The notes beneath the pieces are model-generated. The model saw only the letters and a list, made by a program, of their open reading frames with translations. It searched no databases and had not been told where the DNA came from. A stretch of DNA of 64,000 nt from Centroscyllium fabricii. Its lineage: Eukaryota. The stretch is taken from assembly GCA_051313645.2 (NCBI GenBank), contig JBNRSN020000010.1:9114001-9178000 (forward strand), given 5' to 3'. Positions 28,466 to 62,200 of the stretch are shown piece after piece (positions within the stretch are counted from its first letter, which is position 1; the number at the start of each line of letters is the position of its first letter). The position numbers were made by a program, and so were the translations under genes.

Positions 28466-31400
28466 TGTGACAGGTGTGGTGGTGGACCCATGTGCAGAAC
28501 AAACAGCCAGAGACACAAGATGCAGTAGAACTCAGGAGATAAGTTACTCGAAGACTCTTCATACAGCAGATCAAGTAATGATTCCAAGAAACAACAGGAC
28601 ATCCACAACTCTGTGACCTGAAGACACGAGACCTCAAGGCCGAGTGACTGGGGCTAGAAATATTTGGCTTACATATCAGGTCTGATTACTTCAACAAAAT
28701 AATTACTTGAATGAGACACAGGTGAGGAGAGTCACTGAGATTTGGCAGCATGGTACAGAGGAATCCTAAACCTCCCTCTGGTGGCTGGCAGAGGAACGAG
28801 TGGCTGGAATGCTGACAGTACCTCCCCCGCTAGGGACGGCACCTGATATACCCACAATAGACTCTGGCTGGCGCTGGTGGAACTGCCGGAAATGCCCAGG
28901 ATCCAGGATGTCCGGAGCCGGAACCCAGGAGCGGTCCTCGGGTCCATATCCCTCGCAATCCACCAAATATTGGAGTCCCCCGCAGACCCAGAGGGAGCGA
29001 AGAAGACGGCAGACGGTGTAGGTGGGCTGGTCCCCTACTAGTCGAGGGGCTGGAGGTGGTCTGGTGGCTCTAGACAGGGGACTGGTCCACACAGTTTTGA
29101 GTCGGGAGACACGGAAGGAAGGATGGATCCTCATGGATTGAGGAAACAGGAGTCGGCAGGATACTGGGTTTATCTTCCGGAGTATCTTGAATGGACCAAA
29201 GAAGCGAGAAGCCAGTTTGCGGGACTCGACCCACAGGGGAAGGTCCCGGGTGGAGAGCCACACCATCTGCCCGGGCCAGAGCAAAGCTGCAGGATTGCGT
29301 CGTCGGTTGACCTGGTTCCTCGGTCGACGTGATGCCAGTTGCAGTGCAGAACGGCCCTTTCTCCAGGTCCTCCGGTAGCGTCGGACGAACAACTCAGCCG
29401 ACGGTAACATCACCTCAGGCTCCTGTTCAGAGAACAATGGAGGTCGGTAATGTGTTGTGAGCATATCCTGCCCAAATGAGTTGTTTGCTCCAAGTAGAGG
29501 GGTTGGAGGAGGCAAGGCAACGCAGGGTTGTCACCAGGTCTTGATTCACCCTCTAGTTTTGCCCATTGGACTGGGAATGGAAACCCGAGTAGAGTCTGAC
29601 TGCTGCACCCAGGAGATGACAGAAAGCCTTCCAGAACCGGGAAGTGAACTGGGGACCACGGTGTGACACTGTGTCTAGAGGAAGACCATATAAACGGAAG
29701 GCGTGTTGTGCCGTAAATTCCACGGTTTATAAACATAGAAACATGGAAACATGTAAGATAGGAGCAGGAGTAGGCCATTCGGCCCTTCGAGCCTGCTCCG
29801 CCATTCAATGAGATCATGGCTGATCATCCAAACCCAGTAACCTGTCCCTGCCTTGTCCCCATATCCCTCGATCCCCATCGAGCCTGCACCGACACATATC
29901 CCACCCTATCCCCATAACCCCACATATTCAATCCCCCTAACACTAAGGGTCAATTTATCATGGCCAATCAACCTAAACTGCACATCGTTGGACTGTGGGA
30001 GGAAACCGGAGCACCCGGAGGAAACCCACGCAGACACGGAGAGAATTTGCAAACTCCACACAGAGAGTTCTCGAGGCTGGATTTGAACCCGGGTCTCTAG
30101 TGCTGTAAGGCAACAGTGGTAAGCACTATGCCACCGTGCCGCCCATTGCTTTTTACTTTCTTGCCTGGATTTTTCCATTGATGTCAATGTTTCTTGGGCA
30201 GAAGGAAGTTTGGGCAGGGGGACGAAGTGGCAGGCCTTGGAGAACTGGTCGACAACAACTAGGATGTCATTGTTACCCTGGGACGGACGGGGGCAGACCG
30301 GTGATAAAGCCCATGGAAATGTGGGACCAAGGACGGTTCGGAAAGGGGAGCGGATGAAGGAGGCCATGTGGACCTGTCCTGAGGTTCTTCTGCTGGGCAC
30401 AGCTGTTGCAAGCTAAGACAAATGACCAGCCGTCTTTCTCGACCGATGGCCACCAGAATCGCCTGCGGACGAACTCGAGAATTCGGGCGACTCCTGAATG
30501 CCCAGTTAGCCAGGACGTGTGCTCCCACTGCAGGACATGGGTTCGGACTGTCGTGGGAAGAAACAGTCGATTCGGAGTTTCGACACCTGGATCGGACTCC
30601 CGCCATTGTGCATCTCGAACGGTGGTGTCGATGCCCCAGCGAACCGAAGCCAAAATCCTGGAGCTCGGAAGGATGGGTGTCAGGCTCTTGCTTATGTCCG
30701 GGGGCTGGAATTGACGAGAGAGCACCTCAGATTTCAGATTTTGGGACCCGGGCCGGTAAGAGAGGATGAACTCGAATCGAGTGAAGAAGAGCACCCACCG
30801 GGCCTGGCGAGAATTGAGGCGTTTGGCATGCTGGATGTAGGCGAGGTTCTTATGGTTGGTCCAGACCACGAATCGGTGTTTGCTGGCCTCTTGCCAGTTC
30901 CTCCATTCTTCCAATGCTAACTTGACCGCAAACAGTTGTTTGTTGCCGATAATATAGCTGCACTCAGCAGGCAATAGCCGCCTGGAAAATAAGGCACACA
31001 GGTGGAGTTTGCCGCTATAGAGCTGAAGTCTCTGAAGAATCTTCTGTAGAAGTTGGCGAAGCCGTTGAAGCGTTGGGCCTGTTTGACTGCAGTGGGTGTT
31101 GTCCAGTCACAGACAGCCTGGGCTTTATCTGGATCCATCTGCGTCCATCTGGGTGCCGCCATTGGTGACGATAAAGCCAAATAAGGAGACAGTGGAGACA
31201 TATAACTCACTTTTGTCGAGTTTGACATGCAGGTGGTTTTTAAGAAGCCGGTGCAGTACCTCTCGGACGTGTTGAACATGTTCGTGGGGGGAGCTGGAAA
31301 AGATGAGAATGTCATCAATGTAGACGAAGACGATCAGGTTGAGCAGATCACGAAGAACGTCGTTATTCAGGGATTGAAAGACCGCTCGTGCATTGGCCAA

Positions 31401-33729
31401 ACGAAACTGCATTACCAAGTATTCATAATGGCCAGTAGGGCTGTTCAACGCGGGCTTCCACTGTTTTCCTTCCCTTATACAGACCAAATTGCCTGCATTA
31501 CGAAGATCCAGCATGGTACAGCGCGTGGACCCCTGCCGGAGCTCGAACACAGTGGACATAAGAGGGAGGGGGTAGCGATTCGTCACTGTGGTCCGGTTGA
31601 GGCCGCGATAATTATTGCATGGGCGGACACTCCCATCCGTTTTTACACAAAATAGAAGGCTGCCCCGGCAGGGGAGGTGGAAGGATGGATAGCACCAGTG
31701 AAGAGGGCGTCATGGATATACTCCTCCATAGCCGCGGTCTCGGGGGATGAGAGAGAGAATAGACGACCCCGCGGAGGACAGGTGACGGATAACAGGTCGA
31801 TGGCACAGTCGCACGGGTGGTGAGGAGGAAGAGTGACGCCCCGCTTCTTACTGAAGACCTCTATAAGGTCGGTATATGCAGGTCGACCTCGAGGAGCATC
31901 GGGGGGAATGGAGAGCTCGGGGCACTTGAGAAGTGGTGCCGAGAATAGGCAGGTTGCTTGACAGGTAGGTCCCCATTCCATGAGTGCCCCAGTAAACCAG
32001 TTGATATGTGGATTATGAAGAGCCAACCAGGGAAAATCCAGGACCAGAGGGAACTCGGGGGAATAAATTAGGTGGAGCTTGATTGTCTCTTGGTGGTGCT
32101 TCTCCACACATAACTGCAGGAGGATAGTGATTCGGCAGATGTTACCAGAGCCCAAAGGTCTACCATCAAGTGCAGTAATTGTACGTGGCTGGTCGAGATC
32201 GATCCTTGGGATCTTCAGCTGTCTAGCGAAGTTGATATCCATGAAATTCCCCGCCGCTCCAGAATCCACAAAAGCACGGAGAGTGTGTTGCTGATTACCC
32301 TAAGAGAGACAAGTGTAGAGACGGACACCTGAAGAAGTAGATTCGAGAGTGGTGATTTGACTCATCACAGTCCTCCCGCTTTTGGACGAGTCCTGGCTTT
32401 TCCCACCAGCTCGGGGCAGGTATCGCAGAAGTGTCAGAATTCCCCGCAGTAGATGCAGCTTCTCTCGCGCATCCATCGCTCCCGTTCAGATTAGGAGATT
32501 CGAGTTCTGCCCAGCTGCACGGGCTTCTCCGCGGCGATATGTGGCGTTGGGCTCGGGGGTGCCGCATTGGGGATGTCCCAGAAGTGCCTGGAAGTCATCG
32601 CTGAGGTGCTGGCTCTGAGATCCAGGGGCGAGAGGAACAGGCGGCGGCATTCTCTTCGCCACTCTCGGAGTCGATTGTCAATCCGAATGGCTATATTGAT
32701 AAGAGCCTCGAGATCCGATGTACATTCACGGGAGGCCAGTTCATCTTTGACATCCTCTGAATGACCGTGAGAAAATGTGGCAATAGGTGCCTCCATATTC
32801 CAAAGACTCCCAGTGGCAAGAGTACGGAATTCAATAGCGTAGACGGATACAGCATGATTGACCTGATGCAGGTGTAGCAGTCTATTGCCCGTCACTGGCC
32901 CGCAAACTTAATAGTCGAAGGCTTGCCTCATCTCCTCGGAGAACATCCGACAGTTGAAGCAGGCTTGTCTGTCTCTCCAAAATGGCCTGGCCCAAACGAG
33001 GCTCTCCCGGTGAGCAGGGTGAAGATGAAAGCGACCTTAGAGCGATCGTTGGGAAATCTAGAAGGCTGGAGCTCAAATGCTAGAGAACACTGCGAGGAAG
33101 CCGCGACACTTGCCTGGTTGACCGTTGTATAGTTCGGGAGCTGGAAGGTATGAATCCTTGTCTTGTCGAGGATGAGGTGCTGGAAGTTGTGCTGAGTCCG
33201 GCTGCTGGCTGTGCCCGACAGCCTCTGCTAGGGAATGTAGGCTATCACAAATCGAATGCAGTAATTGGGCATGCCTCTCGACATTGGTTCCTTGGCTCCG
33301 CAGGGTAAAGCGGAGTTGATTTATCACCTCCTGTGGTTGGCTGTTCTCTGCTGGGTCTATGTTGATGTCGTGGTCTTGCTGTGACGGCTGTGTTGGTGGA
33401 CCAAGGTGCAAAACAAACAGCCAGAGGCATAAGATGCAGTAGAACTCAGGAGATACTTTACTCGAAGGCTCTTCATACAACAGATCAAGTAACGATTACA
33501 AGAAACAACAGGACATACACAACTCTGTGACTTGCAGGCACGAGACCTCAAGACCGACTGACTGGGGTTAGAAATATTTGGCTTATATAACAGGCCGGAT
33601 TACTTCAACAAGATCATTTCTTGAATGAGACACAGGTGAGGAGAGAGTGTTATTTGGCAGCCTGTTACAGAGGCATCCTAAACCGCCCTCTGGTGGCTGG
33701 CAGAGGAACGAGTGGCTGGAATCCTGACA
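28466..33729 (-). mobile_element. Gypsy chromovirus (sushi/Tf1-like) LTR retrotransposon, decayed: gag-PR-RT-RNaseH-IN-chromodomain
   Basis: LTRs 28466-28817 and 33380-33729 (TG...CA, about 350 bp); TSD GTCAT/GCCAT; PPT AGCGGGGGAGG; gag (ELYNGQPGKCRGFL, YAIEFRTLA), protease [21 protein letters not shown], RNaseH WTNHKNL, integrase VVVDQFSK, chromodomain QYLVDCEGYGPEDRSW. Confidence 0.95.
29731..30144 (-). mobile_element. HE1-type V-SINE inserted in the Gypsy integrase
   Basis: Full head, V-domain and tail; interrupts the integrase between PSAQET and ...[10 protein letters not shown]. Confidence 0.9.
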
Positions 33730-34826: not shown

Positions 34827-35055
34827 GCCATGATGCGGAGGTGCCGGTGTTGGACTGGGGTGGACAAATGCAAGAAGTCTCACAACACCAGGTTATAATC
34901 CAACAGTTTCATTTTAAATCACAAGCTTTCAGAGCGTCTGCCCCTTCGTCAGGTGAAAGACATCTTTCACCTGACGAAGGGGCAGGCGCTCCGAAAGCTT
35001 GTGATTTAAAATAAAACTGTTGGACTATAACCTGGTGTTGTGTGACTTCTTAAAT
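34827..35055. mobile_element. Miniature palindromic Penelope pseudo-LTR element with two opposed hammerhead motifs
   Basis: Inverted arms of about 90 bp around a CA loop at 34961-34962; arms match the ends of Penelope 12993-15174; flanks ATGGTCATATTG and ATGATCATACTG (10/12). Confidence 0.85.
34967..35004 (+). ncRNA. Minimal hammerhead ribozyme motif (mirror copy on - at 34919-34956)
   Basis: TCAC-CTGACGA-AGGGGC-AGGC-GCTCC-GAAA-GC-TT-GTGA with intact catalytic boxes. Confidence 0.8.
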
Positions 35056-35309
35056 ATGATCATACTGAATGGCGGAGCAGGCTCGAAGGTCCGGATTGCC
35101 GACTCCTGCTCCTATTTGTCAATGTTGCCATGTTTCTATTTATGAAGATCCGGAAGGCAGGGGTAGAATCAGGCATTGTGCAGGTGGAAAGCAAGGCAAA
35201 TGGGAAAATTAGGATTGTGGCAGTTAGAGAAGCCACAGTCAGGAGCAGGATAATTGGAAAACCAGACATGAAGCACTGGAAGGAGCAGCCCTAAGGAAAA
35301 AAAGTCTTG

Positions 35310-35760
35310 GATTGATGTAGTGCCCTTCGCGATCTCGGGATGTCCCAAAGCGCTTTCTAGCCAAGGAAATACATTTGTAGTGTAGTAACTGTTATAATGG
35401 TGGAATTGCGGCAGCCAATTTGCGCACAGAACGCGCCCACAAACAGCAATATGATAATGAACAGAAAGCTGTTTTTTTGTTATGTCGATTGAAGGATTAA
35501 TAATGGCCGGACCTCTAGTGATAACTACACTGCTCCTCAGCGAAATATTTCCATGAGGTGTTTTCCGCCCATCTGAGAGACCAGATAGGACCTCGGATTA
35601 TCCTGTCATCTGGAAGACGGCAAGACCTACAGCGCATCGCTCCCTTAGCAGTGCACTAAAGTACCAGCCTAGATTGTTGGGCTCAAGTCTCATGGAGTTG
35701 GAGTTGGCTCCACAACCTTAAGACTGCGAGGGAGTGCTCCCCACTAAACCATGGATGAAA
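35310..35760 (-). mobile_element. Deu-domain SINE
   Basis: Similar to 3531-3885 over most of its length; tRNA-like head at about 35690-35755. Confidence 0.65.
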
Positions 35761-37094
35761 GTTACGATGGAGGAAGGGGAAGTGGACACGGAGGAGTCGA
35801 GAGATGTATTACCAAGTTTTAATACTTATGTTAAAAGCAAATGCTACTTAGGAATTTAATTTAAGTTTCAGATTTTATGAGGCTCATAATGAATTGAATA
35901 AGTTGTCAGATATTTTTTTAAAGAATACAATGAAAAGGTGAATTCACAAAACCACGAATAAAGGTCAAATGGCCAATGATGCAAAGAGTTCGCCTGTTTA
36001 CCGCACATATTTTCCGTCAGGGAAACCTGAAGCCTGATACTCATGGGTGTGAACATCGAAGCCCAGACTGTTACGTACTAACTCGAGACTATCTCCTGGA
36101 TGTTAGAATCTTTGCTGTGCTTCTAATAAAATGACAATCTGTGAAAATTAACCTGGAAACAATCATATGACGGGAATTACAGAGCTGCACGACAATCCAG
36201 ATCCGGCGTGAGAAGCCTGATACCGAGATTAATGTAGCTGGGATCAGAATTAATTAAAAGTACGCAGAGTTAGAATCGGTTTAAAGATACAGCTAATGTT
36301 CAAAAGTGATGTTCAGAAGTTAATGCCAATCATTAATGTGTTAACTCAGAGAACACTCTGTGCCCTTCCATCAGGTATTTGATCCCAATAAACTAACAGC
36401 AATCTTTGTCCCTTGCTATCTTTGCCCTTTTCTACTCTGTTAATAAACTGGTTTTATGGTGGGCAATATAATCGAATTTCTGACAGTGGACTGGTTTCTT
36501 CTGCAGAATCCGTTTTCTGTGCGAGGTCTACTGAACAGCTGTTGGAGGACATAAATTTAGTCATTGCTACCACACCAATAATTAATGACTTTGGTTAAAA
36601 GATTACATTAATCACAATGATTCAAACTGAATGAGACCCTGTTTGACTCTGATCGAGCCCAGCACCAGAGGACAGGGCGGGGAGGGATTGTACTGATCAG
36701 GTCAAGATTATGAATGTGCTGTATAACTGACCATTGCCCAGGTTGTAATAATTAAGCCGCATAACACACAGCATTAACTTACCAGACTCTCTGGAACCAG
36801 AATCAGGAGCCGCAGTACAAGGTAAGGAGACAGAATTTCGGAGCACAGTTATAGTGTTTTAATGTAGCTGCACTGATCCGTCGCCTTTTATTTGTGCAGG
36901 AGGTGAATGATATTGAAAAGATGAAGTATTACTACGAGACCAGGTAAGACATTTTGTCTCTTTAGAAATTGTTTATTGCCACAGAGTACTTTAATAGAAT
37001 AAAACTAACGAATGTAATCTCACACATTAACTTTCTGTTGTTGTAGCTAGTATTGAAATGCATTTCGACTTTATGAAACGCTTATGAACAAACG

Positions 37095-37570
37095 GCAACA
37101 GCAGCAACTTATTTTTAAATAGCGCCTTTAAAGTAGTAACATGTCCCAAGGCGCTGCACAGGAATATTTTAAGACCGTTTTGACACCGATCCATGTAAGG
37201 ATAAATTAGGGCAGGTGACCAAAAACTTGTTCAAATTAGTATGTATTGAGGAGCGCCTTAAAGGAGGATAGCGAGGTAGAGAGGCAGAGAGTGTTACGGA
37301 GAGAATTCAAGAGTTTAGGGCCTCGGCAACAGAAGGGACGACTACCAAGCTTTGAGCGATTCTAATCAGGGATGCTCAAGAGGGCAGAATTTGAGGAGCG
37401 CAGATAACTTGGGGGGTTGTGGAGCCGAAGCAGGGTACAGAGATAAGATGTGGCGAGGCCATGGAGGGACATGAAAACAAGGATATTAATGTTGAAATCA
37501 AGGCGCTGCTTAACCCGGAGCCAAGTAGATCAGCGAGCACAGGACTGATGTGCGAACGTGACTTGCTGCA
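37095..37570 (-). mobile_element. L2-clade LINE 3' fragment
   Basis: CAACAGCAGCAACTT...AGCGCCTTTAAAGTAGTAACATGTCCCAAGGCGCTGCACAGG tail, then L2-like C-terminal sequence on the minus strand. Confidence 0.7.
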
Positions 37571-37649
37571 ACAGTTAGCTATCGAGACTTCTCACCATAC
37601 ACCATGTGCTCTCAGCTGATCCTCTCGCGTTTTATGACCTTTTATAATA

Positions 37650-38984
37650 AGGTGACAAATCAACTCCTGTACTAGAGGTACCCCATCACTTACAGTTGCG
37701 GTCATTAAGCTTCTCTTTTAGTTGAGGAATCCGTTCACTTACACTAGGGATGACAAAGCTCCTCTTGTACTAGTGGTACCCCATCAGTTAAACTAGAGGT
37801 GTCCAAGCTCCTCTTGTATTAGTGGTGCCATTTCACCTAAACCTGATGTGACCAAATTCCTCTTCTACTCGTCGTACAGCTTCACGTATACTGGAGGTGA
37901 GCAAGCTCCTCTTGCACCATTGGAACCCCTACACTTACTCTGGTGGTCATCAATCTCCTCTTGTACTAGTGGTAAATCTTCACTTACACTAGAGGTGACC
38001 AAGCTCCTGTTGTACCAGTGAAACCCTACCCTTACATTAGTAGTGACCAAACTCCTCTTGTACAAGTGGCCCCCTACATTTACACGAGAAGTGACCCAGC
38101 AACACTTGTACCATTGGAACCCCTACTCTTACACTAGTGTTGACCAAGCATGTGTTGTGCTCGTGGTACACGTACACTTACACGAGGGGTGACCAACTCC
38201 TCTTGTACCATTGGAACCCCTACACTTACACAAGTGGTGACCAAGCTCCTCTTGTACTAGTGATACCCGTACACTTACACGAGAGGTGACCAAACTCCTC
38301 TTGAATGAGTCGTCCCCCGTACACATACACTTGATGTGTACAAGCTCCTCCGGTACCACTGGTACCCGACAATATCACAGGAGTTGCCCGTACTCCTCCG
38401 GTATATTGGGACCATACACTTACACAGAGCTTTTACAGCGTTTTCTGTTGTTATTTCCTCTTGTTCCAGTTGTACTATTACACTTACACCAGATGTGACC
38501 AAGCTTACCTTGTACTAGTCGTCCCTGTACACGTACACTAGATTAGGCCAAGCACCTCTTGTACTATTGGTAACCCTTCATTTACACTAGTGGTGACCAA
38601 GCTGTTCTTGTACTATTGGTCCCCCTACAGTTACACTAGATGTGACCAACTGCTCATTTACTATTGTTCCCCCTATTCTTGCACTAGTGCTAACCACGCC
38701 GCACTTGTACGAATGGCCCCCCTACACTTACACTAGAGGTGACTAAGCTCCTCTTTTATTGTGGCACCCGTACTATTGCACTAGAGGTGACCAATCTCCT
38801 CTGGTACTAGTGGTCGCCTTACACTTACATTGAGGTGGCCAAGCTTGTCTTGTTCTAGTGGTACGACTTCACTTACACTAGATGTGACCAAGGTCGTCTT
38901 GCACGAATGGTGCCCGTGCACTTACACTAGATTTGGCCAAGCTCTCCTTGTACTATTCGTCCCCCTACACTTACACTAGTGGTG
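37650..38984 (+). repeat. 49-bp variant tandem repeat, part 1
   Basis: Unit about TACACTTACACTAGAGGTGACCAAGCTCCTCTTGTACTAGTGGTACCCC; period measured between 38221 and 38270. Confidence 0.9.
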
Positions 38985-39042
38985 GAGGAGGAATTCCTGG
39001 AGTGTATACGAGACGGTTTCCGGGACCAATATGTCGAGGAAC

Positions 39043-42000
39043 TGATGCACTATCAATAACTCCAAAAGACTAGAAGTGGTACGAGTAAGAAATCAGCCTT
39101 TATTGACTAAAGAAGACGAGCATGTCTCCAGCTGTAGACCGATCCTGAAAGCCCGTGGGAGGGGAGCTCAGTTATCTTTATACCTGTGATTAGGTGTGGA
39201 GCCAGGGGCGGAGCAAGCAGAGACATGCCCAGACAAGTTATGTACAAAAAGAACAGTGTTTTACCACATTCACCCCTTGCTTAAAATGAGTCCGGCGGGG
39301 TGAAGTGTCTCAGAAGTTCGTGTAATTAAGTCTCTCCGGGGTTCTTGTTAGCCTAAGTGACCGTCGAGGTGCCAACTGTGGTGGTTCATCTCTCGCGGCC
39401 GTTTACCGCTTGGGCCGGAGCACTGGTGTGTCGTCTTCCTGGATGCTGATTTGGTTGGCATATGAGGGTGGGTCACGGCGCCCCGGCGTGCCATGAAATG
39501 GGGTCAGTTATGGATTCCCTGCTACAGGTGTGTCGTGGGTAACGGTAGAGGGCAAGGGTGGTGGAGAGTGGGCTATGGTGGTTTCAGCGGCCCCCAAGGT
39601 TGCGAGGTCTTGTATGAAGACTGTGTCCTCCCGCCCATCGCGATACGCCACGTATGCATATTGTGGTTTGGCGTGGAGGAGGTGGACACTTTCTGCTAGG
39701 GGGTCTGTTTTATGGCTCCTCGTGTGCTTCTGGATTAGGACGTGACCTGGAGACATCAGCCATGGCGGTAGCGGTGTCCGCGATGTGGAACTCCTAGGGA
39801 AGGTGAACATTTTCTCGTGAGGGATGGCATTTGTGGTGGTGCAGATCAGTGACCGTATGGAGTCGGGCGTGTCAGGGTCGTAGCTACCTCTATTTCGAGC
39901 CGGTACTGGCGCAGCTCGTCACTCATAAACGATGTATCTGGTCGTTATGTATGTATCTGGGGTAACCGAATATTGCGAATAGATCATTTAGACATTTGAT
40001 GACCATAGGGCTGGTCATGTCCGAGCAGGGGATGGCGAACGGGAAATGGGAGTACTCATCAATGATGTTGAGGATGTACGTCTTGCGGTCAGAGGAGGGG
40101 AGGGGCCCTTTAAAATCAACGCTCAGGCGCTCAAAGGGGCGAGTGGCTTTTATCAGGTGCGCCCTGTCTGGCCTATATAAATGCGGTTTGCACTCGGCAC
40201 AGACCTGGGAGTTCCTGGTCATGCTCCTGACCTCCTCGATGGAGTAAGGCAGGTTGCGTGCCATAATGAAATGAAAGAACCTGGTGCCCCCGGGTGGCAA
40301 AGATCATTGTGGAGGGCTCGCAGCCTATCGGCCTGTGCGTTTGCACACGTTCCATGGGATAGGACATCTGGGGGCGCATTAAGTTTCCCAGGCCAGTATA
40401 AGATATCGTAATTGTAGGTGGATAATTCGATTCTCCACCTCAATATCTTATCGTTTTTGATTTTGCCCCGCTGCTTGTTTTTGAACATAAATGTTGCTGA
40501 TCATTGGTCAGTGAGCAGGGTGAATCGTTTACCGGCCAGGTAATGCCTCCAATGGTGCACAGTTTCGACTATAGCCTGGGCCTCCTTTTCTACTGAGGAG
40601 TGTCTAATTGCGGGGCCCTGGAGGGTTCGTGAAAAGAAGGCCACGGGTCCCCCCGCCTGAATAAGCGTTGAAGCAGGGCAAAATTGGACACATCGCTCTC
40701 CACCTGGAAAGGGTTGGACTCGTCCACGGCGTGCATTATGGCCTTCGGAATGTCCTCTTTAATGTGGCTGAAGGCTAAGCGGGCTTCTGTCACCAGGCGG
40801 AAGGAGGTGTAATTGACAAGGGGCCGGGCCTTGTCCGCATAATTGGGCAGCCACTGGGCGTAGTAAGAGAAGAACCCCTGACATCTCTTCAGGGCCTTGA
40901 GGCAGTGAGTCAGAGGTAGTTCCAGGAGGGGGTGCATCCGGTCGGAGTTGGGGCCGACGACTCCGTTTTCCACAACACAGCCAAGGATAGCGAGGTGGTT
41001 GATGTGAATCATACATTTTCCCTTGTTATAGGTCAAAACTAAGCGCTGGACTGTGCGGAGGAATTTTTCGAGGTTGGCGTCATGTTCCTGCAGGTCATGG
41101 CTGCAGATTGTAACGCTGTCCAGGTAGGGAAAAGTGGCCTGCAGCGCGTTTTGTTCGACCATCCGATCCATCTCCCTTTGGTGACGCTGAAGGGAAACCT
41201 AAGGAAGTCGTAGAGTTGGCCGTTTACTTCGAAGGCAGTATAATGGCGGTCCGCAGGCCTGATAGGGTGTTGGTGATATGCCGACTTAAGGTCAATGGTA
41301 GAGAGTACTGGTACTGCACAATCTGTTTGACCATATCAGATATGCGGGGAGTGGGTATGCATATAACTGGGAATATCTATTGCTCGTTTGACGATAGTCA
41401 ATGACCAGGCGCTGTTTCTCGCAGGTCTTCACAACCACTACTTGGGCTCGCCATGGGCTGGTGCTACCCTCGATGATCCCTTCCCACAGGAGCCTCTCTA
41501 CTTCTGATTTTATGAAGACAGTGTCCCCGGCACTGTACCGCCTGGTTTTGGTGGCGATAGCTTTGTAATTGTGGGCGAGGTTAGCGAACAACGGGGGTGA
41601 GGCTGACTTTCAGTGTGGATTGGCTGCATATTGTGCATGGCGGGTGTTTTAATTTTTCTGGCTGCAGACTGTAAGTGCAGCAGCTGTGGAAGAACAAGGA
41701 GCTTGAAGCCTTGTACAACGTGCCCTTCACAGTCAGGCTCACTACACAGTAGCCGCCAACGCCCGCTGTATGGGACTTGGAGGCCATATAGATCCGATGC
41801 CGTGCCGGCAGGACTGAAAGGGAATAGCACCACACTATGCTCCCGCAGTCAAACAGGCAGTTCGTAGCACGGCCGTTTATCCTGATGTCCAACATGGACC
41901 TGGCAAGCTGGTGAGGCTTGGATTGGTCCAGGGTGAAGGAGGCCAGCGTTCGATTTGGTGGGACACTGTCATACTCAGTTGAGGCAATGGGGGAGTCGAG

Positions 42001-43138
42001 GGCTTGATCCCAAAATTGCGGCCGGCACGGCTCACATGCGACTTGTGACATCCACGTTGGCTGCCACCACGGCCCACAGGCGGTGATGCTGGAATAGGAG
42101 GTCGGTTTGGCCTTGCACAGCTTAGCATAGTTCCCCTTCTTACCGCAACCAGAGCAGATCGCATCCTTTGCCGGGCAGCATTGTCTGGGGTGCTTGGCCT
42201 GGCTACAGAAGTAGCACTTTGGGCCTCAGGATATCGCGGCTGTAGTCAGGCTGCTGTTGGGTCGTGCCGGTGGCGGCGTGGTGCAGGCTTGTGTCCCTCC
42301 AAAGTCCCAAGATGGTGGCACCCACAACATCCACGATGTGGCCGCATGGTCAGGGGAGTAGGCATCCATGTTTCGGTGAGCCACATCCAGCGAGTTAGCC
42401 AGTGTCACAGCCTTGGGCAGGTCGAGCCCACCCTGTTCTAACAGTACCTGCCGGGTGCAGCTGGACCTGATGCCAGTGACATAGGCATCCCGGATTAAGA
42501 CCTCCATATATTCTGTGGCCATCACCACTTTTCACTTGCAGGCACGACTGAGGACTTTCAATGCCCGTAGGTATTTGTCACCTGATTCCGCTGGTCGCTG
42601 TTTACGGGTAGCCAGGAGGTGTCTGGCATAGACCTCGTTCACCGGTTCAGTACATTGATGTTTAAGGAGACTGATAGCATCCATATAGGATGTCGCATCG
42701 CAGATCATCGAATATACTTGCTGGCTCACCAGGGAGTTCAGTAACAGCAGCTTGTCGGCTTTGAACATGACGGTAGCGGTGGAGGCCTGCAGGAATGCTT
42801 CAAATCAGCACAGCCAGTGCTCGTAGTTTTTGGAAGCATCCGATGGTTGAGGATCCTACTCCACGTGTTCTGGTTTTACGATTTGCTCCATCATAAAATT
42901 TAATCAATAAAATTGATGCGCTATCAATAACTCCAAAAGACTAGAAGTTAGACGAGTAACAAATCGGCTTTTCTTGACAAAAGAAGACGAGCATGTCTCT
43001 CACTGTAGACCAATCCTGAAAGCCCGGGGAAGGGGAGCTCAGTCACTTTATACCTGGGCTTAGGCGTGGAGCCAGGGGCGGAGCCAGCAGAGACATGCCC
43101 AGACTAGTTATTTACAAACAGAACAGTGGTTTCCCACA
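39043..43138 (-). mobile_element. Gypsy LTR retrotransposon (two gag zinc knuckles, possibly Mag-related), decayed
   Basis: LTRs 39043-39268 and 42914-43138; perfect TSD GGAAC (39038-39042, 43139-43143); PPT AAGGGGTGAA; protease CLFDCGS, RT SPWRAQVVVV and FPYLDSVT, RNaseH QVESDVS, integrase HNDLCHPG and SVDFKGPLP. Confidence 0.93.
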
Positions 43139-45105
43139 GGAACCAACTCGGGATCAGGCCATCTTAGACTTCGTATTATGCAATGAGAAAGGATTAATTA
43201 GCAATCTTGTTGTACGAGGCCCCTTGGGTCAGAGTGATCATAATATGATCGAATTCTCACTTAAGATGGAGAGTGAGGAAATTGAGTCAAAGACTAAGGT
43301 CCTGAATTTAATTAAAGTGAACTATGATGTTATGAGACGCGACTTGGGTAGGATTGATTGGGTGGTGTCGCTCGAGGGGTTGATGGTGGATGGACAATGG
43401 CAAACATTCAAAGATCGAATGGAAGAATTACAGAATTTGTTTATACCGTTTTGGCATAAAAAAAACCAAGAAAGGTGACTCAACCGTGGATAACAAGGGA
43501 AATTCGAGATAACATAAAATCCAAAGAGAGGGCATATAATTTGGCCAACAAAAGCAACAGACCTGATGATTGGGAACAGTTTACGATACAGCAAAGGGAT
43601 TCATTAAGAGGGGGAAAAAGATAATTAAAGTAAGTTTGCAGCGGACATAACAACTGACTGCAAATGCTTTTAAAGCTATATTAAGAGGAAAAGATTGGTG
43701 CAATCAAGCGTCCGAAGCAGAGGAATATATAATGGGGAACAACGAAATGGCAGACCACGTAAATACATATTTTGGTTCTGTTTTCACAAAGGAGTAAACA
43801 AATAACCTCCCAGAGATGTCGTGATACATATGGACTAATGAGAGGGAGGAACTGATATAAATCAGTATTTGTAGAGATATGGTGTTGGGGAAGTTGAAGA
43901 GATTGAAGGCCGACAAATCCCTAGGGCCTGATAATCTACATCCTAGGGTACTTAAGAAAGTGGCCCTGCAGATAGCAGATGCATTGCTGATCAACTTCCA
44001 GAACTCCATAGACTATTGCACAGTACCCGTGGATTGGAGGGTAGCTAATGTTGCCCCACTATTCAAAAAATGGGGTAGAGAAAAAGCGGGCAATTGTAGA
44101 CCAGTGAGCGTGACTATGGTAGAGGGGAAAGTGCTAGAGTCTATTATTAAAGATATACTAGCAGTAAACTTGAAAAACAGTGACAGGATCGGACAGAGTC
44201 AACATGGATTTACAAAAGGTAAATCGTGCGTGACTGATCTACTGGAAGTTTTTGAGGATGTAACTGGTAAAACAGATAGGGGAAAACCAGTGGACGTGGT
44301 GTATTTGGACTTTCAGAAATCTTTAGATGAGGTCCCTCATAAAAGATTAGCGTGCATAATTAAGCCTCATTGGATTGGGGGCAAGGTATTGACTTGGATA
44401 GAGAACTGGTTGGCAGATGGAAAACAGCGAGTTGTAATAAATGGGTCGTTTTCCGAGTGGCAGGCAGTGATTAGTGGGGTACAGCAAGGATCATTCCTAG
44501 GTCCCCAGCTGTTCACAATATATATTAATGGTCTGGACTAGTGAATTGGATGTAATATCTACAAATTTGCAGACGACACAAAGCTGGGTGGGGGGGGGGG
44601 GGGTATGCTGTGAGGACGATGTCGAGAAACTCCAATGCGATTTGTACAGGTTGGGGAATTGGGCATATACATGGCAAATGCACTATAATGTGGATACATG
44701 TGCGGTTATCCACTTTAGAGGCAAAAAGAGGAGGGAATATTATTATTTGAATGGCAATAGATTGGGAGATGGCGAAGTGCAATGAGACCTGATTATTCGT
44801 GTGCACCAGTCACTGAACGTAAGCATGCAGGTGCAACAGCTGGTTAACAAGGCAAATGGTATGTTGGCCTTCGTAGCAAGAGGGTTCGCATATAAGAACA
44901 AGGATCTCTTGCTGCAGCTCTACAAGACCTTGGTGAGACCACACCTCGAGTATTGTGTGCTGTTTTGGTCGCCTCATCTGAGGAAGGAAGTTCTTGCTAT
45001 TGAAGGAGTGCAGTGAAGATTCACCAGGCTGATCCCTGGGATGACAGGAATGCCGGATGGGGAGAGATTGAGTCAATTGGGCTTATACTCACTGGAGTTC
45101 ACTAA

Positions 45106-45420
45106 TGGCCCGATGGCATAGTGGTTAGCACTGTTGCCTCACAGCGCCAGGGGCGCGGGTTGAAATCTGGCCTCGGGTGACTATCTGTGTGGAGCTTGCA
45201 CATTCTCCCTGTGCCTGCGAGGGTTTTCTCCAGGTGCTCCGGTTTCTTCCCACAGTCCAAAGACTTGCGGGTTATGTTGATTGGCCATGATAAATTGACC
45301 CTTAATGTTAGGGCGATTAAATATGTGGGGTTACAGGGATACCGTAGGATATGTGTCGGTGCAGTCTCGATGGGCGGAAATGGCCTTTATCTGCACTATA
45401 GGGATTCTATGATTTTATGA
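45106..45420 (+). mobile_element. V-SINE, short-tail form
   Basis: Head and V-domain, then GTCGGTGCAGTCTCGATGGGCGGAAATGGCC...GATTCTATGATT. Confidence 0.85.
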
Positions 45421-45814
45421 TTGAGAGTGGATATCATCGAAACCTATAAAATTCTTTCAGGCCTGGACAGACTCGATGCAGGAAGGATGTTTCCGAAAAA
45501 AGGGCAGTCCAGAACCAGGGGCCATAGGCTAAGGATAAGGGGAAAACCATTTAGGTCTGAGATGAGGGGCAATTTGTTCAACCAGAGACTGGTGAATCCA
45601 TGGAATTCTCTGCCACAGAGGGCGGTGGAGGTCGATTCATTAAATATATTCAAGAAGGAGTTGGATATATTTCTTCAGGCTGAAGGCATCAAAGGATATG
45701 GGGAGAAGGCAGGGAAAGGATACTGAATCTGAAAGATCAGTCATGGTCTGATTGAATGGCGGAGCAGGCTCAAAGGGCCGAATGGACAGTCCTGCTCCTA
45801 TCTTCTATGTTTCT

Positions 45815-46295
45815 ATGACCAAGTTCGTTTTGTACGAGTGGTCCCTGTACATTTACACGAGAGTTGGCGAAGCTCCTCTTGTACTATTGGTACCCCATTC
45901 ACTTACACAAGTTGTGACCAAGCTCCTCGTGTACGATTGTTCCCCCTACAGTTACACAAGTGGTGTCCATGCTACATTTAACTAGTGGTGGCCAAACTGC
46001 TCTTGTACGAGAGGTCCCCCCTACTCTTACACTAGAGGTGACCAAGCGTCTCCTGTACTACTGCTACCTCTTCTCTTACACTAGATTTCACCCAGCTCCT
46101 CTGGTACCAGTGGTACCCGATATTATCACGTGAGGTGCCCGTTGTCCTCCTGTATAGTGGGACCGTTCACTTACACTATTAATATTCATCTCCTCCTGTA
46201 TTAATGCACAGATTCACTTAAACTACAGGTGATAATGGTCCAGCGGCACTAGTGGTAACCCTAAACCTACATTAGAGTTGACCAAGCTGTCCCAG
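45815..46295 (+). repeat. 49-bp variant tandem repeat, part 2
   Basis: Resumes mid-unit (ACCAAG...) where 37650-38984 was cut (...TAGTGGTG). Confidence 0.85.
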
Positions 46296-46299
46296 TACA

Positions 46300-46655
46300 T
46301 GCGGTGTGTGCTGAATGTGTTCTGTGCATATGCTGTGTGTATATGTGCTTTTTGTGTCTGACTTGACAGTGTATGTGAGTGTTTTGTGTGTGTTTTGTGT
46401 GTCTGTGCCTGTGTTGTATGTGTGTGTTTATATGTTGTGTGTGTGTTTTGTGTGTGTATGTCTGTGTTGTATGGGAGTGTGTTTATGTTTTGGCTGTTAG
46501 CTTGTGTATATGCATATACGTGTTTTGCGTGTAATATGTGTGCATATGGCGTGTGTGTTTTTAGATGTGTATCTGTTGGGTGTTAGTGTTGCGTCTGTCT
46601 GTGTTGTGTTTGTGTTTGGGTGCATGTATGTGTTTTTTGTGTTTGTATGATTGTG
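46300..46655 (+). repeat. Degenerate (TG)n-rich low-complexity tract
   Basis: Imperfect TG/GT repeats directly upstream of the 46675 acceptor. Confidence 0.85.
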
Positions 46656-47007
46656 CCTGTCAATATTTACACAGAAAATCTTCCTCAAGATATTTATACT
46701 GGCACTTCACAGGGCAAGCAGAGGACGTGTTATCCCTTTTTAAAAATATGTGCCGCAATCTCCAGCCATACAGAGACAATTCTTTTCATAGGGCAGGATA
46801 TACAAATATTGAAATTGGCGGAGGCATCTGTGTTGATTCCGCCCCAGCATGATTACCACTCATTCAGCGTGACACTGAAATTATGAAAGAGAATCATCAG
46901 GGAAAGGTAAGAGTTTAAATTATTCTATAATATCAGACAAAGTTGCACCAGATCCTGGCGAAATCTATTCCCCTCTACTTCATATTTGTGTGGTGCTTGC
47001 GACAGTC

Positions 47008-47270
47008 ATAAAAACGTAAGAAATAGGAGCAGGAGTAGGCCATTCGGCACTTCGAGCCTGCTCTATCATTCAATAAAATTATGGGTGATCTTGAATCTCA
47101 ACTCTGTCTGCCCGCTGTTGATTCTCGAAATTCTAACAATCTCTCGTCTTCAATATACTAAACAAGTCGGCATCAACAGCCCTCTGGGGTATATAATTCC
47201 AAAGCTTCACACCCCTTTGACTGAAGAAATTTCTCGTCATCTCAGTCCTAAATGGCCGCCCCTTATTCTT
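47008..47270 (-). mobile_element. CR1 3' tail fragment
   Basis: AGAAATAGGAGCAGGAGTAGGCCATTCGG is the reverse of the CR1 tail. Confidence 0.75.
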
Positions 47271-47419
47271 AGTGCTGCAAGAACTTTAGTGGAACAGCTA
47301 GGAGCGATCATTTCTTGCCTCTGTATCCCATCGGGGGCAATCGCATGTCAACATGGCTCTAAATGGAGTGCAACGTCTCATCCAGAAACAATGATCTCTC
47401 TTTTTCTATCTTTACACTG

Positions 47420-47555
47420 ATGTGGACATGCTGGTGTTGAACTGGTGTGGGCAAAGGCAAGAAGTCACACAACACCAGGTTATAGTCCAACAGCTTTATT
47501 TGAAATCACTTACAGCTGTTGGACTATAACCTGGTGTTGCGTGACTCCTTACATT
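47420..47555. mobile_element. Very small palindromic Penelope pseudo-LTR derivative
   Basis: AGTCACACAACACCAGGTTATAGTCCAACAGCT and AGCTGTTGGACTATAACCTGGTGTTGCGTGACT inverted arms; flanks TATCTTTACACTG and TATCATTCCACTG (11/13). Confidence 0.75.
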
Positions 47556-48858
47556 TATCATTCCACTGGCGCAGCCCATTTTTGTCATCGAGCACCTGGG
47601 TGGGTCAGTTTCATCGGTTAATCACCGATAATCTCATAAAAACTAATAATGTGCTTTATTGTATGCAACGGGTACAAGTTTGCAACCACTTAGCAGCATG
47701 ACGCATGTAGTACAGGTTTTATGGCAAAATTGCTGATTGCAGTTGCAGAAGGGAGAAATAAAGTGGATAATGCTGATGACTCTGGCCTTTGAAAGCAACG
47801 CCCATATGGCGATGGTGACAATCTTCAAATGTTGTCTGGCTCCAGGTTTTGAGAGGAACAGGTTTCAATTACAAGAAACGCATCTAGGCTGTTCTTATAT
47901 CTCATTTATTGGCCGTGCCACTGCTTGATTTCCTACCCTGCTCCTATAATCGCTTTATAATATGCTGATAAAACTATATTGACTCTATTGCACAATTGGA
48001 TGCAAACATCATGTAATTATGTGCTGCCCTTTGTTGAGAATTTACCCCAGTGAAACCAAGATTAGATTATTATTATCAATGTACACTTTGATCAGTATTT
48101 GAAACCTGCACTGCAAGCATATGTCAATCCGCCACTCCCTCAATATGTGCAGTAAACCATGACCTTCCTTCTCTCTACATTGCTGACATAGTATAATATC
48201 CAATTTAACCAACGTTGCTTTCTGAATCTGTATGGCAGAAACAAATGGACACCGAGCCATATATTAAATCGACAGAAAATAAACATTCGGTATGGTAAGG
48301 CACACCTGAGCAGAGCAAATTGCATTAGGTCAGTTGGTTGTTCCAGAACCTGCTACTCCGTCTATTTCTTCCCATTCATTTCGATCTAATGAGGCTGATT
48401 TCATTATTTAACGATAGTGTAAAATGGACACTATATAATGGGCCTCCCAGGACACAACTCTCCCGATTTTCCTTGTCGGCAAATAAAATTGGTCGAGGTG
48501 TATGACCGACATCCAATTGTCAGATATCGCCCGTTTACCACTATCGCCAAATGTTAAAATTAAACTGTAAAATTTACTGGGCGTATAAAGATAGTCCCGT
48601 TCAACCAAACAGTACGGAATTTAAACTGGTACCTTTGCTTTGCGTGAGAACACATAGGTCTACTCTAGTCAGAATCGCCTCCATGAAGGAACTCTATACT
48701 TACCGCCTCACCCAAGCTTAATCAATCCTGGCAGGCCAACTCTGAGAGGACATCTCCAGCACATCTTGATTTTCTCCATAAATTTGGAAAATTTGTTTGG
48801 ATTTAAGTAGTCACTCTCTATCTGCTGTTCATATTATGTCCTTTGTGATCCCAATATT

Positions 48859-49233
48859 GGCCCAAAAAATGCGTTCCCTACCAGTGTGTACGCCCTGTGC
48901 ACTCACACCTTGGCCAACGGAAGAGCCGGTTTTGCCAATGCACTGCGCATGCATTGGAAACCGGATCTGCCGGTCTATAAAGAAAGGGTTTTGCAGGTCA
49001 ATCGCCTGCGCTGGATAGGCAGCGCTTACGGATGGAACTTCTGCATTTTTCAGCGGTTGCTTCAGACCAGGTAAATCTTAAATAGATACGCCTGGAACAG
49101 TGGTGATGGGGATTATCTGTCAACAGAAATATTTAAGAGCATGGGCAGTGCATGCCTGAACCCCCCACTTGTGCGGTCCCTACGGGCGCATGCGCACTTC
49201 ATACGCACCCGTAGGGGACGCAAATTACGGCCC
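48859..49233. mobile_element. MITE with GGCCC-type TIRs
   Basis: GGCCCAAAAAATGCGTTCCCTAC and GTAGGGGACGCAAATTACGGCCC inverted ends; subterminal GCGCATGC motifs. Confidence 0.7.
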
Positions 49234-50202
49234 ATGATTTCCACAACCAACTCCTGGTATATTAAATTTCCTACAACTATAGCTTGTCCCTTCCTATTTG
49301 TCTTCCTTATTTCATCCACTGCTTCAGATTAAAACTTTCACCCTCACCTTGTCATCAATACCGCACCCTCAGCAATAGCTGCCTTTGTACTTATCTATTA
49401 ATTCTACTTAAAGTGATTTGCGACCGCCCTTTCATTTATATTATTTTTTGCCACATGTCGCTCAACAGATAAACTCTCACATCACCCACTTTTCTCCTGA
49501 TATTGTCTCTTCTAAACAATATGCAGTGTTCAAGATATGAGATCGATTGATTGAATCGTTCCATCGTGGCTGCGTGAAGCTACTCATGTCCAATCTATCA
49601 GTCCCCACAAATACATTCCAGGTCACATACCTTATTTGTCAGACATTTCGCATGAAGTCAAGTAAAGCTCCATTGTTTATTAATCTCACCTTTATGTTAG
49701 TAACATTCAACATTGCTTTTCTCCCAACATTGGGTTCAGATTTAATAAAAGTTAATTTATGTTTTCACTGGCACACCTCAACATTTGCTCCGTTCGGTAT
49801 GGGAATTTAGCTCCAACACCCACCACCAGAGCATCTCGTTTAAACATTGCCCCTCCATTCTATCTGTGCTACCTGCCAACACCTCTCTCCCATTTGAACC
49901 GTGTCCCATTGTTTAAAGAAATACAATCCCGATTCTGTTTGCCTAAGCTTTTACCATGAGTTGATCTGCTGAATTACACATGATTAATCGTCCTTCCCAT
50001 CGCTCTCAATTTAGTACGATGGAGCCCAATCAATACGGGAATCTAATACGGATTGCAAAAATATGAAACGTGTGAGGTTTTTGAAATATTTATTAAAACA
50101 TGTCCAGCCCGGTTACATCCAGACATATCTGGTTTACGAATATTATTGCTGAATATCTGAATCTTAGTTTCAGAACAAGAAGTTTTCCCATGTGGAGACA
50201 TC

Positions 50203-50734
50203 ATGGCTGAGAAAAGGAAAGGTAATTTCTGGCGAAGAATAGGAAGGGTCGATCGCACTCATCAAAATGAAAAGGGCGATGTAAACACAAAACCCGATGA
50301 TGTCAGTGAAGGGCCGCACAACCGACCAGGCGATCAAAAGCATGACACTCCAGGAGGAATGGTTCGAAATGCAATTGCTTTCTTGGGAAAGAACAAGATT
50401 CGTAAAGAAAAGGACGACAAGCAGAATATCCCTGCTGAACCTGACAGGGCCACCGCAACAGCTGGTGACACGGTTAAAAGTCTCAACACGGAAATGGACC
50501 CAAGGGCCCTCACTGTGACCGGGTCTCATAAGAATACATTTACAAAGACCAGTCCTGCCAATAACAATACTGGATTATTCAATCCGAACCAAGAGGGATA
50601 TGCTGTTACAGAATCATCGCTCAGCACGGATGCTTCCAGTGATATCAGCCACACACACAAAGTGAATGAAGATCTACAGCCGGGGCTGCAAGAAAAAGGA
50701 GCCGGCGGAAATGGCAGAAGTGCGCACACATCCG
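50203..50734 (+). CDS. First coding exon of a CARD-containing (probable NLR-family) gene; hydrophilic N-terminal region
   Basis: Acceptor TTAGTTTCAG at 50173; ATG in strong Kozak context (ATCATGG); 177 open codons in unique sequence; donor G|GTGAGA at 50735, phase 1, compatible with 59477/59480. Confidence 0.65.
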
Positions 50735-50990
50735 GTGAGATTACTCCTTGTGTTGAACTGATATATCTGCCAGTGTTTAAAATTTAATCCAGTGAACTTC
50801 AAACCGTGTTTTCAATCTCTTCTCATTCTGTTGAGGCTTCCTACATATCTGAGATTTGTAACGATTTTATTATTACCAATAAGTTAAATTATCCTCTAAA
50901 TGGCACAGAAAGCGTCATAATTCACTCCTGTCCCTCTACCAAATCTTAAACTCAATTCTGGTACAGCAGCAGATGTTATTCTGAGATAAA

Positions 50991-51900
50991 GGCCCAGCAT
51001 TTGCGGTCGGAGGCTTCCCGCGGAGAAATTCCTCCGATTTGTTAATAAAAAACCCGCCTACCTGGTAGGTACGGAGACTCGCGGTCCTGGGGCTCTCAAA
51101 ATACCCGTAGGTAGAGGCTCACGTATCCCAGGTGCTCACGGGGTTCACAGGCACCCATTGGATCACGTGGGCTGGCCAAACGAATGATAGAAAGGGATCA
51201 CCATTCTTGCTTATGGGGCTTCCGTATTTACATTACGCAATCCCTACAACTATGAATGGGAAAACCCCAGAAAATGCAACTGCACGTCAAACAAATAAAA
51301 AATTACATATTTAAAATATATTATAATGACATTTAATTAAACCAAAATTGTTATTAAAAAAAATAAACGATTTAACCGGCCGAAAAATAACATTACCCCA
51401 TGGCACAGTATTTTTAATGTTTAAGTGATTGAAATATTTTTTTACACAAAAACATAGAAACAGAGAAGATAGGAGCCTGCTCCTCCATTCAGGGGGATCA
51501 TGGCTGATCATCTAAATTCAACACCGTATCCTTGCCTTCTCTCCTCACCCGTGATCCATTTAGCCTTACGAAATATATCTAACTCAGTCTTCATTATATT
51601 TCATGATTCGGCCTCCACTGCCTTCTGTGGCAGAGAAATCAGCGAAACCTGCGTTATCACCAGGCATAATAATTCCACAGCGATTCGCCGGTCTGGATTC
51701 CGTCAAATCACCCAACACCCAATCTGCGAATGCCCTGTTCCCAGGGATGCGCTGGATCTGTTAACATGGTTCTTCACAAATCACAGGTTCTGGTTATTCC
51801 CGAATGTGCTCCAAACACAAAAGCCTGGAACTTGTTCGGCACTTACATGCACGTACGCATCGCATACGCGGACGTAGTTGCCACAAGTTACGGGCATTAT
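50991..51900. mobile_element. MITE/DNA-transposon remnant related to the 12502 element, with a CR1 tail fragment (about 51449-51640, -) inside
   Basis: Start GGCCCAGCATTTGCGGTCGGAGGCTTCC resembles the 12502 and 56453 starts; shared TCACGTGGG motif. Right end not resolved. Confidence 0.5.
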
Positions 51901-51939
51901 ATCTATAATAACAACGGAAAATGCTGTAAAAAACACAGT

Positions 51940-54280: not shown

Positions 54281-54299
54281 CATCTATGATGGCTTGGGT

Positions 54300-55020
54300 T
54301 CTATTGTTGAAGAAAGGACATACATGCCGTAGAGGCGGAGCAACAAATCTTCAATGGATTAAGCCCTGGAGTGAGAGGGCTGTCCTATGATGATGATTGT
54401 ATAGATTGCGCATATACCCACTGGAGTTCAGAAAATTTAAATGTTATCTCGTTGAAATATGTAAGACTCTGAGGGATAACGATTGACAGGTTAGATGCTG
54501 AGAGGTTGTATCCCCTGGCTGGCGAGTCTAGAACTAGGGGTCACAGTCTCAGAATAAGGAGTCGGCCGTTTATGACTGAGGTAAGAAGCAATTTCTTCAC
54601 GCAGCGGTTTGTGAATCTTCAGAATTCTCTACCCGAAAGGGGATAGGGTGGGATATGTGTCTGTGCAGGCTCGATAGGGATCGAGGGATATGGGGAGAGG
54701 GCAGGGGCGGGTTGCTGGGTTTGGATGATCAGCCATGATCTCATTGAATGGCGAAGCAGGCTCGAAGGGCCGAATGGCCTTCCCCTGCTACTATCTTCTA
54801 TGTTTCTATGTTTCTATGTTTCTGTGCTTGTGAATGCTGAGTCAATGGGTATACTCAAGGCTCAGATCGATAAACGTTTGGACTCTAGGGGAATGGAAGG
54901 ATATTGGGGATCGGTGGGTAAATGGAGCTGAGCTCGAAGATCCGTCATGGTCGTATTGAATGGCAGAGCAGGCTCGAAGGGCCGTTCCTCTACCCCTGGC
55001 CCTAATTCTTACGTTTTTGT
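54300..55020 (+). mobile_element. CR1 3' fragment containing a V-SINE long-tail piece (about 54640-54825)
   Basis: SRTRGHSLRIR...NFFTQR remnants; GGGATAGGGTGGGATATGTGTC...(TTTCTATG)n insert. Confidence 0.8.
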
Positions 55021-55227
55021 GTACATATAGGTTTTGCTGAGCTCAAGGTTTCGCCACATTTTCTGTGCTACTAACCCATAGAAATCCTTTTTTAGTCCTG
55101 GCAAACCTGGACTAAAAAGTTGGTATCAGTAATGGAGACCATGTAACTACCAGATTGTTGTAAAAGACCATCTGGTTCACTAATGTCCTGAGCGAATGAA
55201 ATCTACCATACTAACCCGGTCTGGACT

Positions 55228-56450: not shown

Positions 56451-56452
56451 AT

Positions 56453-56700
56453 GGCCCAGAAATTCGGGTTGGAGGCTTATCACGAGTGCAAGCCTCCAAC
56501 CCACACTTACCGACCGCACCGGCCGTTGAGCAGTGCCCCAGCATGGACCCCGATTTTGGGCCCTCCAGAGCTGCCGGCGCACCGCGCTCCCGGATCCGAG
56601 CGGTGAAGATAGTGAGAGGCTTCATGCGGGATCAGGTGGGCTGCGGAGAGCCAGAATGCTCCATACATATGTTTGACAGGAAGACCTGTCAAACATATGA
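56453..56700. mobile_element. MITE left-end fragment (GGCCC family)
   Basis: GGCCCAGAAATTCGGGTTGGAGGCTT...AAGCCTCCAACCC internal hairpin. Confidence 0.5.
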
Positions 56701-59476: not shown

Positions 59477-59646
59477 CAGACGCTGTGGATCAAATGCAGG
59501 AAATTCTGGCAAGTTTCAGAGATATTGAGCTCCGTAGAATCACAGTATTCTACCGTCAGAGATTGGAAGACGCTATTGAAGAATTTGTTGATGGTGTTGG
59601 TTTGGCATTACTGGATGAAAACCAAATTAATAGTCAAGAATATCAG
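59477..59646 (+). CDS. CARD-like death-fold exon, N-terminal half: ADAVDQMQEILASFRDIELRRITVFYRQRLEDAIEEFVDGVGLALLDENQINSQEYQ
   Basis: Pyrimidine tract + CAGCAG acceptor (59474-59479), donor CAG|GTAGAT at 59647; phase 1 in, phase 0 out; CARD helix 1-3 pattern (R..L...V..V...L.....I...EY). Confidence 0.8.

Positions 59647-62140: not shown

Positions 62141-62200
<60 letters not shown>

Follow-up and report, generated by a model that had tools for sequence, protein, structure and literature searches.

A probable relic of a divergent, multiply disabled BRICHOS-family gene beside an NLR gene in the shark Centroscyllium fabricii

BRICHOS domains act as chaperones for a beta-prone segment of their own precursor, and two cysteines staple the second helix of the domain to its sheet (PMC10182729). 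The DNA considered here is a stretch of 64,000 nucleotides (nt) from Centroscyllium fabricii (GenBank assembly GCA_051313645.2, contig JBNRSN020000010.1, positions 9,114,001 to 9,178,000 of the forward strand), called the window below and numbered from its first letter; it is repeat-rich vertebrate DNA. On its plus strand, between 36507 and 46906, lies a series of exons that is probably the relic of a divergent BRICHOS-family gene, disabled several times over and without a working protein in this genome. The assignment to BRICHOS is indirect, as it relies on the spacing of residues compared with published numbering, on the order of predicted structural elements and on a lesion that falls where the first conserved cysteine is expected. 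An earlier note, made from the sequence alone, had proposed a divergent, broken BRICHOS gene at this place; the three breaks and the spacing of the landmarks speak for that proposal, whereas no exon-level search named BRICHOS.

The model comprises three exons and a degenerate one upstream. Exon A (36742..36821, 80 nt), which starts with VVIIKP and carries the lesion, is followed by a GT–AG intron of 78 nt (36822..36899, phase 0) containing an in-frame TAG, then by exon B (36900..36943, 44 nt), which encodes the predicted helix 1. A second GT–AG intron of 9731 nt (36944..46674), with tandem repeats and retroelement-like stretches, leads to exon C (46675..46906), which encodes a predicted strand and helix 2 and contains a TGA at 46850-46852; after a further 54 nt it ends in a strong donor (46907). 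The degenerate exon (36507..36601, with its 3′ end placed tentatively) matches nothing in Pfam or the PDB. The exon coordinates and both introns agree with those of the earlier note, as does the remark that only the last exon is visible among long open reading frames (ORFs): exon C is the only piece within an ORF of at least 80 amino acids (46565-46852). A second copy of the exons is absent from the window (tblastn, best non-self match at E 0.074).

Splice sites were scored with approximate tables, by which a real donor of the neighbouring NLR gene ranked only 111th. By this measure the three donors hold ranks 5 (exon A), 6 and 11 among the 3758 plus-strand GTs of the window, and the acceptors of exon B, the upstream exon, exon A and exon C hold ranks 10, 22, 164 and 589 among 4156 AGs. 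The ‘good splice sites’ claimed earlier are therefore real for the donors and for the acceptors of exon B and the upstream exon, weaker for exon A and not upheld for exon C. Among candidate internal exons on both strands of the window, exon B has the highest score, and a donor–acceptor–donor cluster of the observed strength appeared in none of 60 dinucleotide-resampled windows. Beyond the lesion, the spliced exons A, B and C stay open for 87 codons plus a split codon, which has a chance of ~0.014 for one fixed frame, before allowing for the choice of frame and acceptor.

Three breaks interrupt this structure in two exons, and two of them are of the substitution type. The upstream exon contains a TAA at 36596-36598, and at the position of its donor (36602) the sequence reads AT instead of GT, with a score of only -1.7 even if a GT stood there; the nearest GT, at 36594, ranks 2159th among the 3758. 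In exon A, a TAA at 36775-36777 is combined with a change of frame (36775..36779), equivalent to a gain of two bases or the loss of one. Acceptors inside exon A past the stop (36772 and 36786) were rejected, with scores of -2.2 and -1.6. The stop and frameshift in exon A, and a degenerate exon upstream with its own stop, had been described in the earlier note and are present in the sequence, where the upstream exon also has an acceptor before 36507; that this exon has lost its donor, and that a strong donor lies past the exon C stop, had been overlooked.

The lesion coincides with a landmark of the family. Invariant BRICHOS residues in ITM2A are D144, C160 and C219 (Hedlund et al., PMC2751770), and the corresponding part of proSP-C is numbered D105 (PMC9627735), P115 and I126 (PMC1090616) and C121 (PMC12992958). 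By these spacings the TAA and frame change stand at the position of the first conserved cysteine: six codons separate the proline of VVIIKP from the lesion, as P115 from C121, and five codons separate the lesion from a tryptophan, as C121 from I126 if two bases are extra, both distances being contained in exon A. A candidate for the conserved aspartate (codon 36587-36589) lies 16 codons before the lesion, as D144 before C160, provided that 36601 is the last base of the upstream exon. On that condition, the series shared with proSP-C is a proline at Asp+10, a cysteine position at Asp+16 and a hydrophobic residue at Asp+21. The earlier note had also placed the lesion at the first cysteine; the proline spacing agrees with this independently of any junction, and the aspartate spacing needs a junction without GT. 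On the far side, the candidate second conserved cysteine (TGC, 46751-46753) is 55 codons past the lesion, against 59 for C160–C219 of ITM2A, and it closes a helix predicted to be amphipathic, as expected of the second BRICHOS cysteine. From it, 33 codons lead to the stop, with a tail cysteine (46829-46831) 26 codons after it.

The predicted structure follows the same plan. A crude Chou-Fasman-type assignment gives the string strand–strand–helix–strand–helix, which is the order described for BRICHOS, namely short strands, helix, strand, helix (PMC2751770); the order recurred 12 times among 2000 residue shuffles and 8 times among 2000 chimeras of non-coding pieces, both counts being post hoc. 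The putative helix 2 is amphipathic, with 1.6% of 5000 shuffles scoring as high. The class motif of the second cysteine points the same way, with two matches in the six-frame window, one of them at 46739 (shuffle mean 0.75), and both class motifs together occurred in none of 2000 non-coding chimeras. The middle motif has four matches elsewhere in the unspliced window and appears at the locus only once exon A is spliced to exon B. Since motifs and structure pattern were composed after the sequence had been seen, on the model of the family pattern, these chance rates are optimistic. A single-sequence AlphaFold2 model of exon C has a helix at residues 15-35 at low confidence (mean predicted local distance difference test score 51), and searches with it were uninformative, with no Foldseek match at E 0.001 and a best VIA-align Z of 2.8.

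Several observations weigh against a BRICHOS ancestry, or against the gene model on which it is built. Exon C has a weak in-frame acceptor, and a stronger one at 46713 (rank 164) leads to a stop after 10 codons; 15 AGs lie within 46560-46860, among which 46675 gives the longest reading (59 codons), with 54 codons each for 46690 (same frame) and 46724 (other frame). At looser thresholds, the donor–acceptor–donor cluster arises in 12 of the 60 resampled windows. The aspartate is brought into register only across AT at 36602, the first conserved cysteine is not there, its place being taken by the TAA and frame change, and the tail has a single cysteine where Hedlund et al. report two (C244 and C261 in ITM2A numbering), found in all families but group A and proSP-C (PMC2751770). 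The missing first cysteine is what a pseudogene would be expected to show. The motif of the first strand is common, with 10 matches in the window against a shuffle mean of 15, the putative helix 1 shows no amphipathicity (49% of shuffles score as high), and the optimism of the post hoc rates counts on this side as well. A convincing hydrophobic leader exon was not found: no single-frame stretch of 19 residues with hydropathy of at least 2.2 occurs within 3 kb upstream. A possible remnant of a signal-peptide or transmembrane exon at 36375..36458 (plus strand; acceptor score 4.7 at 36375) is a weak lead, with hydrophobic codons split over two frames (best 12-residue hydropathy 2.18 and 2.20) and a following intron of only 48 nt with mismatched phase; T-rich DNA yields such stretches by chance, and six others lie upstream.

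The same holds for the searches, which were of low power: single exons or stacked pieces served as queries, each exon being less than one third of a BRICHOS domain. No BRICHOS family (PF04089, as cited in PMC9627735) was returned by Pfam for any single-exon or stop-read-through query, phmmer gave no match in the PDB, and the ESM Atlas (all and named clusters) gave nothing usable. Among 1.84 billion representatives at 50% identity, phmmer of exon C found only two tandem-repeat proteins, which were dropped as chance (10 and 7 matched stretches). Word-indexed searches confirmed none of 4 candidates for exon C read through its TGA (proteins of 136-2000 amino acids) and none of 121 for a four-row alignment of the separate pieces (103-2000 amino acids; a poor stacked profile), and an exact look-up found none of three window ORFs in the protein collection, whose sister collection includes at least one shark protein. 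In simulations with 100 ungapped relatives at each level of identity, phmmer of exon C recovered all of them at 60%, 86 at 50%, 55 at 40% and 8 at 30%, which makes a closely related annotated orthologue unlikely, whereas a distant one may still exist. The C-terminal half and the tail are the least conserved parts of BRICHOS proteins, with 26% identity for the GKN1 tail (PMC2751770), and the failed exon C searches are therefore compatible with a BRICHOS origin. Membership in the superfamily is not established.

Just downstream, on the same strand, the sequence matches place an NLR (NACHT-LRR) immune-receptor gene of shark type, with its 5′ part at 50174-63907. Its exons at 59479-59649 and 63715-63909 are 58-60% identical to a NACHT-LRR protein of Mustelus asterias (tblastn E 4e-14 and 9e-16), and a database search returned Mustelus asterias XP_078087541.1 (61% identity, E 5e-9; one of 18 candidates), to which 59479-59646 and 63736-63907 correspond. 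A long ORF from an ATG at 50203, which matches this protein weakly (E 0.36), is likely the first coding exon; the exon for the NACHT domain has to be sought outside the window. CpG observed/expected ratios rise to 0.7-0.95 at 48800-49250 and 50000-52000, and GCGCATGCGC at about 49187 together with a candidate donor at 49071 may mark the NLR promoter and first exon. A stop-to-stop ORF of 82 amino acids (51878-52126, plus strand), of unique sequence and protein-like composition, has no Pfam match and no good donor nearby, and is possibly an NLR exon or a relic. The pieces of the BRICHOS-like relic were also considered as NLR coding exons and rejected (best E 3.4 for the model against the NLR protein). 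Among 75 non-repeat ORFs of the window of at least 58 amino acids, none reached the curated Pfam cut-off. An expanded NLRP-related family is on record in the whale shark (PMC8455134), in an article whose available text does not mention BRICHOS.

This neighbourhood gives substance to the strongest competing explanation, in which the exons are real and either non-coding or of other origin, as parts of a long non-coding transcript or as 5′ untranslated exons of the NLR gene, with the donor at 46907 joined to the acceptor before 50174 and the BRICHOS likeness read into them afterwards. Strong donors that persist while coding features are broken would suit it, as would the donor that closes exon C, which shares its strand with the NLR gene and precedes the start exon of that gene by 3.3 kb, and the lack of a match in any protein search. 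It is nonetheless unlikely, as it leaves the landmark spacing, the order of structural elements and the open codons across two junctions to coincidence, and the candidate donor at 49071 is nearer and might belong to a 5′ exon of the NLR gene itself. Rfam has no family in 35000-51000, a result of little weight where long non-coding RNAs are concerned. Both explanations could also hold together, if a BRICHOS relic was later co-opted.

Quite improbable is the absence of any gene, with chance splice-like signals and short open frames in unique intergenic DNA assembled by eye, an idea that draws on the clusters obtained at looser thresholds, on the 14 codons of exon B (chance of being open 0.5) and on an exon C acceptor picked among many AGs, and that is countered by the failure of resampled windows to reach the observed strength and by four pieces that follow one another consistently, match in phase and show the landmark spacing. 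The least probable, and clearly unlikely, is that the gene is alive and looks broken through assembly errors or a single null allele: donors and frame past the lesion are intact and small indels are a typical error of long reads, but two exons carry three separate breaks, two of which are of the substitution type, and neither a leader exon nor a matching protein in the collections was found.

If the BRICHOS relic is compared with known members of the superfamily, namely ITM2A/B/C, GKN1-3, CNMD, TNMD, BRICD5, proSP-C, OAF, groups I/II and precursors of antimicrobial peptides (PMC10182729), it shares with them the order and spacing of a candidate aspartate, the cysteine position and the second cysteine, the predicted strands and two helices with an intervening strand, and a short tail with a predicted strand and a cysteine. 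It differs from them in the stop and frame change in place of the first cysteine, in having one tail cysteine and not two, in the lack of a profile match from exon queries and in the lack of a convincing hydrophobic leader.

The gastrokines come to mind because the earlier note had called the gene gastrokine-like, on tentative residue-level likenesses to GKN1 and GKN2. They share with the relic a short tail after the second cysteine and, weakly, a possible signal-peptide-type leader. We know of no gastrokine gene in which a 44-nt exon and a phase-2 intron divide this region. From proline to second cysteine, a chicken gastrokine-1 peptide counts 48 residues (PMC2588339), against 44 here by eye. 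Pseudogenization is known in the family: platypus has a Gkn1 pseudogene, genes have decayed through nonsense mutations, and there are copies away from the canonical locus; lungfish and coelacanth have a gastrokine-like clade (PMC12372087). The canonical neighbourhood is ANTXR1/BMP10 (PMC12372087), whereas no such neighbour was seen in the 64-kb window, and an NLR gene stands downstream. With this neighbour, and with one of the two C-terminal cysteines missing, orthology with gastrokines is not supported and the gastrokine-like label is given up.

As to proSP-C, a second possible likeness beyond the series of spacings is a stop with only an untranslated exon behind it, which in SFTPC is the sixth (PMC1090616). 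ProSP-C itself is without a C-terminal tail (PMC2751770), in contrast to the codons that follow the second cysteine here, and no poly-valine helix was found at this locus.

Taken as a BRICHOS gene, the ancestor would have encoded a proprotein of the secretory pathway with a hydrophobic leader, a linker, the BRICHOS domain and a short beta-rich tail, the upstream exon presumably contributing the linker and first strand. Both this descent and the way of working are what we infer from the present remains: by analogy, the ancestral domain may have acted as a chaperone for its own aggregation-prone tail by means of a fold of beta-sheet and helix stapled by the two cysteines. The lesion would remove the first cysteine and shift the frame ahead of both helices, so that transcripts would yield only a short truncated peptide and would themselves probably be degraded; together, the three breaks would leave no folded domain. 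The TGA of exon C could be the original stop with an untranslated last exon behind it, a further lesion, or a stop at a place where splicing now continues into the NLR gene. Retroelements and satellites may have inflated the second intron, earlier or later than the decay.

The second intron contains two arrays of a 49-bp tandem repeat (37650-38984 and 45816-45973) and weak matches to RVT_1 (E 0.012) and RNase H (E 0.031) at 40593-41198; about 39300-42900 on the minus strand, a more degraded element resembling a long terminal repeat (LTR) retrotransposon is the second of two in the window. Fragments that we take, from ORF translations, to be similar to long interspersed elements lie in the same intron. 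Its arrays are related to those at 7704-18789 and 18791-19370, the repeats being of 48, 39 and 49 bp with a common CTACACTTACACTAGA-like core; the largest array has ~71 copies, and the arrays produce long spurious ORFs. The first LTR retrotransposon, at about 28500-33400 on the minus strand, is fragmented over several frames and encodes RVT_1 (E 1e-19), RNase H and an integrase zinc-binding domain, an order presumably of Ty3/Gypsy type. ORF fragments at 13100-14750 and 52250-54220 resemble what we take to be Penelope-like retroelements (reverse transcriptase with a GIY-YIG-type endonuclease). An ORF of 106 amino acids in unique sequence (23608-23928, minus strand), ending in a Cys-x-Cys motif, has no Pfam match above cut-off and is probably due to chance.

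Literature queries combining BRICHOS with gastrokine and shark, or with elasmobranch, found no paper (most subscription journals being outside their coverage); BRICHOS with cartilaginous fish and evolution gave general reviews only, gastrokine with shark and stomach nothing relevant by title, and a gene-structure query nothing. Sharks are not mentioned in the main text of the gastric gene-loss study (PMC12372087), the supplementary PDF of PMC9627735 has no shark names, and the available text of PMC10991444 does not mention gastrokines.

A bolder reading, which we offer tentatively and as possible, posits in cartilaginous fishes a BRICHOS family that evolves fast and is not annotated, with these exons as a dead copy. 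The family would stand beyond the 14 described ones, with an exon structure of its own (78-nt intron, 44-nt exon, phase-2 junction) and a place beside NLR immune genes, and would be intact and expressed in other sharks or rays, possibly releasing a short beta-hairpin tail peptide. For the relic as it is now, the surprise is limited, as a probable pseudogene of a known domain family joins BRICHOS pseudogenes already on record, such as platypus Gkn1. If the BRICHOS assignment is right, a BRICHOS gene has been missed by annotation in cartilaginous fishes, and an intact orthologue would help to date the origin of gastrokine-like or surfactant-like BRICHOS genes to before the split of sharks and bony fishes.

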